From a virus (taxonomy: Duplodnaviria; Heunggongvirae; Uroviricota; Caudoviricetes): DNA of 49,241 bases. This document shows, piece by piece, positions 27,001-30,000 of the stretch. The DNA lies in the IMG/VR virus record IMGVR_UViG_2721755711_000006; one strand, written 5' to 3'. Position numbers: made by a program. How positions within the stretch are numbered: the stretch's first letter is position 1; every line of letters begins with the position of its first letter.

Positions 27001-30000
27001 GACACCATTGACAATTTCACAGACCTGAGAGGCAGCATCCAAAAGCTGACGCGCCCTATCCAGGCTGACGCATCCCGACAATAAAAAAGGCACCAGTATC
27101 GCTACCAGTGCCCATTTCGCCGCCGTTCGCGGCATTCTGTGTGTCCAGTGTTTTCGCGTCATATCACCACTCACGATTTCAGAGCAACAATCAACTTTGC
27201 CATCCCATACAGCATCGGAGACACGGCGATGCCGACCGCCACCCACTTAATGGCAAAAGCCACCGCTCTGCTGATGTCATCAGTTACAGGCGCTTTCAAT
27301 TCAAGGCCGTTTTTCATAGTCAACCTCAACAGAATTCGTTTATACTTCTCCATGTTCTCCCTTGCTTACTCAAGGTCAGAAACAGAAAACCCCGAACTGT
27401 TCCCGCAGCCGGGGTTTTTGCTTTTTATTTATCTGTATGGGCGCGACATCTTGCTATTTCATTCCGGGCTTCACTGTCGCCACGACAGATACAACGCGCC
27501 GTGTCACCGTTCAGTGTGATGATGTAGGCTTCATCCTCTTTTTCTACAGGAATGCACGGAATATTCCCGTCCCGGCAATACTCAATCTTCGCTGCAAGAT
27601 GAGTGTTACGCGGATAGAACTCCAGGCGGTACATATCCCCCAGGACATGCACTTCCTCAACATGACGACCGTCTTCTGTACCGTGATTTTCTTGAGTGCG
27701 TACATACGTACCTCCGTTCTTTCGTTTTTGAGTAATAAAAAAGGCCGCCGAAGCGACCTTTGTCAGAATTATTCACACCTTATGTCAGGATGTATGGCAA
27801 TCTCTGCAGCACCAGTAACATCCATTCACCCTCGTGTAACCCAGATTTTTTGCGGCCTTCACTGCCGGCTCACATGAGCTAAACTCTCCAAGCTCTTTAC
27901 GATTGTTTGCATCAGGAAGTCGAAAACATGTTTCTGTATGAACCTCATGATCGTTCTGATTATCTGTAAGAGTGTGAACATAGTACTTCATACGTATTTC
28001 TCCTTTTGGTTGCGTACGCCCAGGAGAAATTAAACGCAAAATACACTTAACTCATTGATAATGATCATTTTTAAATGCTATCACACAGCCACGCGCTCTT
28101 TCATCCAGCCATAGACAAACGACTCATTGGCCTCGCGTTTCTCTGCCAGCTCCAGATAACGCTCGCCCTGCGTACAGTTCAGGGCTTTCACCAGTACCAG
28201 TTCACCATCCCTGCTGCGATTTTTCAGATATGCCCGTAATGCATTAAGAGTACGCGGCCCGATGCGTCCATCTGCATCCATATCCGGATAGAGTTTCCCG
28301 CGCAGGTTGAAAACGTTCAGCCAGCGTTGAAGCATTCTGGACGCCACAGTTGGCCCCATGTTCACGCCCGTATCGCACAACTCTGCGGCAATATCAGGAG
28401 ACAGGTCCTCAACCTGGTCGAATCGTGGTCCGTACCAGTAGTCCGCCTCGAGTATTTCCAGCGCCTGCCCACGCGTCAGGTCACGCATATCGCCCTGATA
28501 ACCGTGTGCACGGGCAACTTTTTCAGTGATGCCCCATTTAGTCGGACCACCTTTATCATCCGGGTGATTGACGTAACCGCCCTCTTTTCCCAGAATTTCG
28601 TCAAAAATTTCATCTTTCGACTTCATATCAGCGCCTTCGTAATACAAGGATTTTTGATACGTTCCCGCGTGCTCGTATCACCAGCACGCAGAACACCAGG
28701 TTAATCAGGACGACCAGCCAGTTACCGGGTGGAAAGCGACCACACAGATAACAAAGCGGCGCAAAGGCATAAAGCAGCATCAGCAGCCAGGCCAGCCACG
28801 ACATCAGCGGTTTATGTCTCGACTCACCACGACGATAAAAAAAGAGCGTCAGCACGATAACCGTGCTTAACACCACATTCAGTAATCCGGGAAGGTTACT
28901 TAACATTACCGCCTCCACCCCGCAGACGGGAGAACAGCCCGGATACCAGCGATGCGATATCCTGCTGGTGGATGAATGAGAGAATCTTCACCGACACCAC
29001 CGATACCAGTACCGCGCAAAGCGCGTCGAGAGATGTGCTGTGGAGATTCAGTTTTTCAACCAGGTAAGACGCCATCACATCCGCCCCCAGCACGCCAACA
29101 ATGAACGACACCAGAAAATGCGCTGCCACACGCCAGACAGAAATCTTCTGTGGTATCGTGGCCACAAACAGCGCCCCTGCGAATGCACCAAACACAATCC
29201 CGAAATCCGTTCCGGTAAACAGCCCGAATACCGTCGCCCCGCCGAGCGCCGCAGCCGTGCCGGAACCGGATAAGGGTTCAGACATACTTTTTCTCCTGTA
29301 AATAAAAAAGGGCCTCTGTCGGCCCGTAAAAAAAACACCCCGTCAAAGGCACCCGCAGATACCTTTTGTGTGGTGTTATCTGGTGTTTTCTGATGTGGTG
29401 TGTACAGGACACAGATGTGAAAAAGGTCCGCCGGTACGAACCCTGTGTATGGATAAAAAAATGCCCGTCAGGAGACGGGCTAACGCATTCATCATGTAAG
29501 AGTTAAGCAGGATTACTTGTATCGAATTATCGGTATCAGAATGAGTCGTCAACCTGCAACCGCAATTCTGACGAATCGTAGGCCCCGGTACAGGCGACGA
29601 CTCATTCTGATAACGCATACCATTAACAATGTAAAAAACACAGCACTGAAACTGTAACCGGCCAGGCATTACAGAATGAAGAAAATAAAGTGTCCGCAAC
29701 CAGATTCTTCACGAAAATTCGCCAGTGCTGATAATAAAGCTATGACTCATCAGTTTTACTGGAGAGCGGGTGGCGGGAATCGAACCCGCATCATCAGCCT
29801 GGAAAGCTGAGGTAATAGCCATTATACGATACCCGCATACTGTGCTGGCTTCCGGAATCACACGAATTACCAGGAAAGCCAGCACTGGTCTTTCCGGTGG
29901 CAAGCAACACCCCTGTGAACATAAAGACAACCACCTTCCGGACCAGTCAGAATACTAACGACAGTTTTTCAGACATCAAAAATATATTTGGTGTTCAGTT

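Follow-up and report, generated by a model that had tools for sequence, protein, structure and literature searches.

What is the role of a long inverted repeat that lies in the noncoding DNA between a phage transfer RNA (tRNA) gene and the first of the lysis genes? The question is raised by IMG/VR record IMGVR_UViG_2721755711_000006, a stretch of 49,241 nucleotides (nt) from a Caudoviricetes virus, which was analysed as a whole and is called the window here. The original prediction had described a perfect inverted repeat of 15 base pairs (bp) with a 45-bp spacer, placed between a tRNA-like gene and a holin gene and next to two terminators, and had offered readings of it at the level of RNA and of DNA. 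We found that the repeat encodes a conserved RNA stem-loop on the minus strand, in the sense of Q, the methylase gene, the tRNA-Gly gene and the holin genes. Together with the linker and the terminator that follow it, this selected, strand-specific RNA hairpin forms an uncatalogued noncoding unit in a narrow set of Escherichia coli prophages.

The repeat and its minus-strand stem-loop

The sequence TCAGAATGAGTCGTC occupies 29536-29550, and 45 nt separate it from its exact complement (29596-29610). The repeat is thus present as predicted, but its perfect part is in fact 17 bp by our own count, and a repeat finder reports arms of 20 nt that contain a single mismatch (95% complementarity; Table 1). 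Its neighbours are also as described: the tRNA-like gene is a tRNA-Gly(UCC), the holin gene follows the repeat in the late direction, and the terminators at 29454-29480 and 29303-29330 match the minus-strand consensus, with stems at 29480-29463 and 29325-29310. These two correspond to the terminators that we denote T1 and T3b. The repeat is confirmed as real, not a product of chance. It is the sole perfect inverted repeat of at least 14 bp with a spacer of at most 100 nt in the 49-kb window, and also the longest; 0.005 inverted repeats of 15 bp would be expected there, and none arose in 100 block shuffles. RNA folding on both strands, which had been suggested as a check, predicts stable structures on each, with energies for the repeat region of -48.5 kcal/mol on the minus strand (z-score -5.7) and -41 kcal/mol on the plus strand (z-score -6.8).

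Is the predicted structure maintained in relatives? We aligned 16 distinct variants from E. coli prophages, and RNAalifold recovered both the long stem and T1 from this alignment. Over the whole 34-pair structure, standard pairs are found in 96.9% of the 542 pair cells; in the hairpin by itself, 413 of 430 cells are paired (96%). Compensatory double changes occur at 8 of the 34 pairs and in at least three lineages, and they include C-G to U-A, A-U to G-C, A-U to C-G and G-C to A-U, in different lineages. Neither the covariation score nor the paired fraction that we observed was matched in any of 500 column shuffles, and when the 3' partners were slid by one to three columns, pairing dropped to 30-50%. 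T1 behaves in the same way: all seven of its pairs are retained in the 16 variants, one of them by a compensatory change. Covariation in related prophages had been named as a second check of the repeat, and the stem is conserved there with the compensatory changes just given.

The alignment also distinguishes the two strands. When read as minus-strand RNA, the hairpin has 59 G·U cells spread over 12 pair positions, versus 4 A·C cells, each of which is a singleton. A plus-strand reading turns the G·U pairs into A·C mismatches, and the paired fraction falls from 96% to 83%. This asymmetry indicates that selection acts on the minus-strand transcript and not on duplex DNA or on a plus-strand RNA. 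A structured noncoding RNA or a processing site had been among the options first put forward for this repeat, and it is the option that the conserved stem, its compensatory changes and the excess of G·U over A·C cells support. To compare regions within the unit, we took identities from seven lineage representatives found by BLAST, which are therefore free of search-pattern bias. The values are given by region in Table 1.

In the predicted fold, an 18-bp helix runs on to 27 bp across two 1-nt bulges and is followed by a 6-bp apical stem, so that the hairpin totals about 33 bp. Read as minus-strand RNA, the 478-nt noncoding stretch in which it stands forms five terminator-like hairpins in a chain, with the long hairpin between the first two. 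Besides the two flagged terminators, there are accordingly three further terminator-like hairpins within the same 480 nt. The first of the five, T0, begins about 35 nt past the tRNA and is probably a leaky first terminator. The stem of T2 is still paired in the R1 lineage by way of a U-A to C-G change, as judged from the alignment by eye.

We found no coding capacity in the unit. Open reading frames (ORFs) across the hairpin were rejected on either strand, their frames being broken by the 1-nt and 5-nt apical indels, and so was a small ORF from the linker ATGATG (MMNALARLL...), which has no Shine-Dalgarno sequence, is frame-broken in lineage F and has its start deleted in the R1 lineage. Nor is there a conserved promoter. 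Between the tRNA and the hairpin, the minus strand has no sigma-70-like site; lineages differ in the 30 nt before the hairpin and in the sequence ahead of T0; and candidate promoters close to the 5' side of the hairpin, within T0 or ahead of it were discarded, their hexamers being weak and not conserved. We also considered that the 3' arm might pair instead with the linker or with T0, and rejected this, as such pairings reach at most 8 bp by hand and are not conserved.

Distribution and cargo site

Among 5426 complete E. coli genomes, BLAST matched the combination of hairpin, linker and T1 in 24 (71-98% identity), and a pattern scan added 25 further IMG/VR prophage contigs that carry the unit. 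A BLAST search of the GenBank/INPHARED phage collection gave no match for the unit. Among the GTDB species representatives, with one genome per bacterial species, there were only chance matches that lack the repeat, and a metagenome scan recovered the E. coli lineages already found, together with chance matches. Overall, 18 distinct sequences were obtained, which fall into about seven lineages.

The genomic context of the unit is also constant. In each of the 35 loci, hairpin, linker and T1 occur together. On the upstream side, tRNA genes precede the unit by 151-174 nt (or 738-822 nt), or the methylase gene precedes it by 432-486 nt. Downstream, the same holin family follows at 239-276 nt, or at 926-1530 nt in loci that have a TerB/DUF3927 or another cargo gene in between. 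T0 is found 120-144 nt upstream of the hairpin in 33 of the 35 loci, always behind a tRNA gene or the remnant of a tRNA 3' end. Such remnants (e.g. GGTTCGATTCCTGTTCTCCGCA) were seen about 35 nt upstream of T0 in L002/L023/L026 and L006/L031, where ARAGORN calls no tRNA. The remaining two loci, L005 and L022, have the hairpin and T1 but neither tRNA nor T0, from which it follows that hairpin, linker and T1 are the minimal conserved unit. In T0's place, about 60-175 nt upstream of the hairpin, these two loci have another inverted repeat of 19 nt (GCCTTATCGGGATAAAGCA ... TGCTTTATCCCGATAAGGC). Prophage copies number 34 and all share one context. A single copy is on a plasmid, the 96-kb pPE041_2 (L008, 4455-5160); it consists of a decayed T0, hairpin and T1 that follow a truncated IS200/IS605 tnpA at a distance of about 20 nt, and is the only copy outside a prophage, its stem visibly decayed.

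Is the unit associated with a particular Q protein? Near-identical units (88-98% identity) are found behind a 122-amino-acid (aa) Q-family protein (L001) and a 221-aa protein Q (L005), and a more diverged unit, 73% identical, stands behind a DUF1133 protein (L003). The sequence of the hairpin unit is thus not tied to the type of Q. Were the unit a loading site specific to Q, it should differ where Q does, and near-identical units behind different Q proteins therefore leave a qut-site reading unsupported.

Comparison with phage phiP27 indicates to which part of the late region the hairpin belongs. In phiP27 (L041; phiP27 15054-23155 against window 28081-33627), the order is a 65-aa ORF, the N6_N4 methylase, tRNAs, stx2e, the leader that both have, a pair of holins and an endolysin. 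The late region of the window has this gene order too, with the hairpin unit placed exactly where phiP27 carries stx2e, and no long inverted repeat or comparable hairpin was found in phiP27 between the tRNAs and the holin. In E. coli 1303, the lysis cassette is present and an analogous hairpin was not found at that place. The absence of the hairpin from both phiP27 and E. coli 1303 indicates that the unit fills the cargo (moron) slot and is dispensable for the lysis module. Only the last ~100 nt before the holin, which contain T3a and T3b, are ones that the window has in common with phiP27 and the LT-IIb (SerU-LTIIb) prophage. Judged from these comparisons, the holin leader with T3a and T3b is a separate module, and the hairpin belongs to the cargo and not to the lysis cassette.

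The late genes of the window are all on the minus strand, and the repeat lies 3.6 kb downstream of Q (Table 1).

Table 1. Hairpin unit and surrounding features in the window, with the identity of each region among seven lineage representatives
Feature	Position	Strand	Description	Identity
Q	33244-33627	-	Pfam Phage_antitermQ	
Porin gene	31957-33063	opposite to late genes		
65-aa ORF	between porin gene and methylase			
N6_N4 DNA methylase	30055-31101	-		
tRNA-Gly(UCC)	29764-29836	-	stable-RNA gene trailed by the unit	
T0, structured element	29633-29730	-	invariant 8-bp closing stem, CAGCACUG / CAGUGCUG, then U-run	
Conserved RNA stem-loop, 85 nt	29531-29615	-	from folding and covariation; 18-bp helix, 6 bp, 3 bp and 6-bp apical stem with GUCA loop, plus 2 basal pairs	
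5' arm (RNA sense)	29596-29615	-	perfect core 29596-29612	0.90 (13-bp core)
Variable apical region	29551-29595	-	1-nt and 5-nt indels between lineages; loop CAG invariant	0.62
3' arm (RNA sense)	29531-29550	-	perfect core 29534-29550	0.86 (13-bp core)
Linker, ~50 nt	29481-29530	-	predicted single-stranded; 3' half CUCUUACAUGAUGAAUGCGUUA moderately conserved	0.51 (5' half), 0.69 (3' half)
T1, intrinsic terminator	29455-29480	-	end of hairpin unit; GCCCGUC-UCCU-GACGGGC, then A + U7	0.80 (terminator), 0.86 (U-tract)
T2, terminator-like hairpin	29420-29443	-	GGGUUCG..CGGACC, then U5	
T3a and T3b, two terminators	29304-29378	-	in holin leader, just before Shine-Dalgarno (29293-29297) and holin ATG (29285)	
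Holin, Phage_holin_8	28896-29285	-		
Second holin, Phage_holin_3_7, then GH108 endolysin	downstream of first holin			
Flanks				0.34-0.51

Several further observations were made in this region. The tRNA-Gly(UCC) gene (29759-29836, minus) does not encode CCA directly after the discriminator base but reads U-CUCCA, so the 3' end would require trimming and CCA addition. T0 holds the heptamer CAUUCUG, which is also found in the 3' arm of the hairpin. On the plus strand, a promoter-like site at 29708-29735 in T0 (TTCACG, 16 nt, GATAAT; 9 of 12 matches) is antisense and faces the tRNA gene; it is probably a chance match. The holin leader contains, between T2 and T3a, a CA-rich (minus strand) 10-nt tandem repeat of 2.6 copies (29371-29396), of which the relative OkiPb01716 has one extra copy. 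This repeat could be a C/A-rich translation enhancer or a small RNA (sRNA) target. Between Q and the end of the porin gene (3' side), at 33079-33111, the perfect 13-bp arms of another inverted repeat enclose a 7-nt loop; on the minus strand this repeat has a terminator-like score, with a poor T-run. At the left end of the window, at 698-1060, there is a transfer-messenger RNA gene (ssrA, tag ANDENYALAA), which suggests that the prophage may be placed near the ssrA attachment site.

A proposed read-through trailer and the alternatives

How might the unit be made, and what might it do? The reading that we favour, and to which we give about an even chance of being correct, is that the hairpin, the ~50-nt linker and T1 constitute a noncoding unit of ~160 nt that forms the trailer of the tRNA/methylase cargo transcription unit. 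Such a unit would have no promoter of its own and would be made by read-through of T0, the probably leaky structured element behind the tRNA. In the lysogen, read-through transcripts would stop at T1, and T2, T3a and T3b would serve as back-ups that keep the holin genes silent. The stack of T0, T1, T2, T3a and T3b within 480 nt directly upstream of the holin start (29304-29730, minus) looks like an insulator that, unless Q is present, bars cargo transcription from the lysis genes. In the lytic cycle, polymerase modified by Q would pass all of these terminators. RNase III would cut the long duplex, or the duplex would protect the 3' end, and a stable structured RNA would be released; cleavage would also part the cargo RNA from the lysis messenger RNA (mRNA). 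RNase III accommodates ~22 bp of double-stranded RNA (PMC6212723), and the predicted, conserved helix is an intramolecular duplex of at least about this length. Since the stem exceeds ~22 bp, cleavage by RNase III would be expected. The unit's transcription, its cleavage and the downstream effects, and with them its function, are inferred.

Several points weigh against this proposal. The cleavage by RNase III is predicted from helix length alone. T0, with its invariant stem and U-run, could terminate efficiently, and there would then be little read-through. The L005 and L022 loci show that the tie to a tRNA is not obligatory. The sequence of the arms is more conserved than simple pairing needs, which hints at a sequence-specific recognition that the model does not explain. 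Finally, the element is young and has a narrow range, and part of its conservation could reflect recent common descent.

Alternatively, the unit could be a trans-acting sRNA that depends on Hfq or ProQ, a reading that we consider possible but rather unlikely. The hairpin would then be a 5' structural or protective domain, the linker CUCUUACAUGAUGAAUGCG would be the seed, and the U7 tail of T1 would be the chaperone-binding 3' end; the targets would be host or phage mRNAs or sRNAs, as for other sRNAs of moron sites. The layout is suitable, in that a stem-loop at the 5' side is followed by single-stranded sequence and then by an intrinsic terminator whose 7-bp GC-rich stem and U7 tail would fit the 3' end of an Hfq-type sRNA, and both the 3' half of the linker (0.69) and the U-tract (0.86) are conserved. 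Against it, we found no promoter that is conserved, the stem exceeds the putative seed in conservation (0.86-0.90 versus 0.69), and 6 nt of this seed are deleted in the commonest lineage, the R1 type.

The same lambdoid moron site also encodes AgvB and AsxR, two sRNAs bound by Hfq, together with their sense partners (PMC4104026), which would speak for an sRNA here. In Rfam 15, however, no family reaches its gathering score over 29531-29615, and at an E-value of at most 10 the hairpin has only chance-level matches. Nearby there are only sub-threshold, terminator-driven matches to AgvB, RprA and STnc100. The best of these, AgvB (RF02702), scores 18.6 bits versus a threshold of 56; its alignment spans linker and T1 (29456-29524, minus strand) and is due to the stem and U-tail of the terminator; the RprA and STnc100 matches are similar. 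AgvB and AsxR are primary transcripts of 51-60 nt, AsxR is antisense to stx2AB, and the family occurs in convergent sRNA pairs (PMC4104026). Like them, the hairpin unit ends in an intrinsic terminator and occupies the niche in E. coli lambdoid prophages where genes for noncoding RNA stand after the cargo that follows Q and ahead of the conserved late genes. It differs in being of late sense and ~160 nt long, with no promoter of its own found. An AgvB or GcvB-sponge idea, which the CA-rich leader repeats had prompted, was rejected on the different size and convergent arrangement of AgvB/AsxR, and the hairpin unit is not a member of the AgvB family.

It is unlikely, though conceivable, that the unit is an undescribed phage gene for a noncoding cargo RNA, co-transcribed with the phage tRNA and acting in trans on the lysogen through a duplex regulator made by RNase III or through a factor that binds double-stranded RNA. 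In that case the near-invariant 13-17 bp duplex would be cut by RNase III, or would be recognised sequence-specifically by a host or phage factor.

Could the hairpin instead have no specific function? It would then be structured filler in an insulating cluster of terminators, and its conserved look would stem from recent divergence of the module. The narrow distribution, with 24 of the 5426 E. coli genomes positive and none from another species, is in keeping with this, as is the occurrence of the same lysis cassette without the hairpin in phiP27 and E. coli 1303. Yet the stems are 0.86-0.90 identical versus 0.34-0.62 for the adjacent linker, loop and flanks of the same sequences, compensatory double changes and a one-sided tolerance of G·U would not be expected without selection, and the sole copy outside a prophage, on pPE041_2, is the one that has visibly decayed. 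We therefore regard filler as quite unlikely.

A DNA-level element is improbable. Candidates would be a cruciform, a site bound by a dimeric protein, an attC-like or other recombination site folded as single-stranded DNA, or the termini of a miniature transposable element. In its favour, the sequence of both arms hardly varies, single-stranded DNA folds well too (-25.8 kcal/mol), and the unit stands at a mosaic junction, with its one plasmid copy beside a truncated transposase gene. Both arms also contain GANTC (GAGTC / GACTC, at 29541-29545 and 29601-29605), and an N6_N4 DNA methyltransferase gene adjoins at 440 nt; the motif is, however, lost in the R1 lineage (GCGTC). The tolerance of G·U on one strand (59 versus 4 cells) is unexpected for duplex DNA or a symmetric protein site, cruciform extrusion is disfavoured by a spacer of 45-50 nt, no attC RYYYAAC / GTTRRRY cores were seen by eye at the arm ends, and there are no dispersed copies, all prophage copies sharing one context. 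Two options that had been raised at the outset are not supported: the DNA cruciform or protein-binding site is opposed by the strand asymmetry and the 45-nt spacer, and a recombination scar is opposed by the persistence of the unit under selection in about seven diverged lineages with differing flanks.

We find it scarcely probable that the unit is a displaced late promoter/qut/tR' region like that of the lambda 6S RNA, or a put-like RNA that makes polymerase resistant to terminators. The likeness to the lambda late-promoter/terminator region that had been claimed for this site holds in part: a structured RNA followed by several terminators stands just before the lysis genes, T1, T2, T3a and T3b would be there for Q-modified polymerase to override ahead of the holin, and some relatives, such as L007, leave no room for a promoter directly after Q. 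The remainder of the likeness fails, as there is no conserved promoter and no sigma-70-like minus-strand site upstream, the upstream stretch varies between lineages, and near-identical units stand behind different Q families. With a put-like element, cargo transcripts would run on into the holins in the lysogen, and whereas the put of HK022 is two short stem-loops next to a promoter, here there is a single long hairpin with none nearby.

Known RNAs and biological meaning

If the unit is indeed a read-through trailer, which described RNAs does it resemble? RrA, RrB and RrF are E. coli sRNAs that lie between the dual terminators of ribosomal RNA (rRNA) operons and are made by read-through (PMC8144298). 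They too are noncoding RNAs between a leaky first terminator and a second terminator that end a stable-RNA unit, and the corresponding order of tRNA, T0, hairpin with linker, and T1 is found in 33 of 35 loci. The unit has no sequence or Rfam relation to these sRNAs, and it differs from them in being phage cargo behind a tRNA, in being dominated by a 33-bp hairpin, and in that its expression is putative. A second parallel is the 3' external transcribed spacer of glyW-cysT-leuZ, which Lalaouna et al. in 2015 reportedly found to be an sRNA sponge derived from a tRNA trailer. In both cases a functional RNA would be freed from the trailer of a tRNA transcript; the trailer here is far more structured and lies beyond the first terminator.

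Phages also use hairpins as RNase III processing sites, among them lambda sib, the N leader and the T7 R sites. With these the unit shares a long intramolecular duplex (at least ~22 bp) in a polycistronic phage transcript, at the boundary between functional units, although there is no sequence similarity. In contrast to lambda sib, the hairpin here does not overlap a terminator and would therefore form with or without antitermination; its cleavage is a prediction. Lastly, 24B_1 is an RNA of microRNA size cut from an 80-nt precursor encoded by the Shiga toxin (Stx) phage phi24B (reviewed in PMC12197685), and our hairpin is likewise a prophage-encoded stretch of roughly precursor size (~80 nt) that could yield short RNAs. 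Differences are that no similarity was found in the phage collection and that processing of the hairpin here is hypothetical. The location differs as well, 24B_1 being situated in the lom region, elsewhere in the phage genome. We found no homology between the unit and any described example of these kinds of RNA, 24B_1 included. By analogy, it would work most like a phage RNase III hairpin joined either to a read-through sRNA between dual terminators or to an RNA from a tRNA trailer.

What would this mean for the phages concerned? Should the unit be unexpressed or without phenotype, it would merely be a well-conserved structural spacer, and in either case its distribution is narrow and the practical yield modest. 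If it is expressed, it would represent an uncatalogued family of structured RNA, carried as cargo by a few E. coli prophages, mostly from cattle and pigs, in the slot that holds toxin genes (Shiga toxin 2e, LT-IIb) in related phages. It would also be an added case of a phage RNA that derives from a tRNA trailer between two terminators, and would offer a compact system in which to study how cargo and lysis genes are separated by stacked terminators and how RNase III acts on late phage transcripts.

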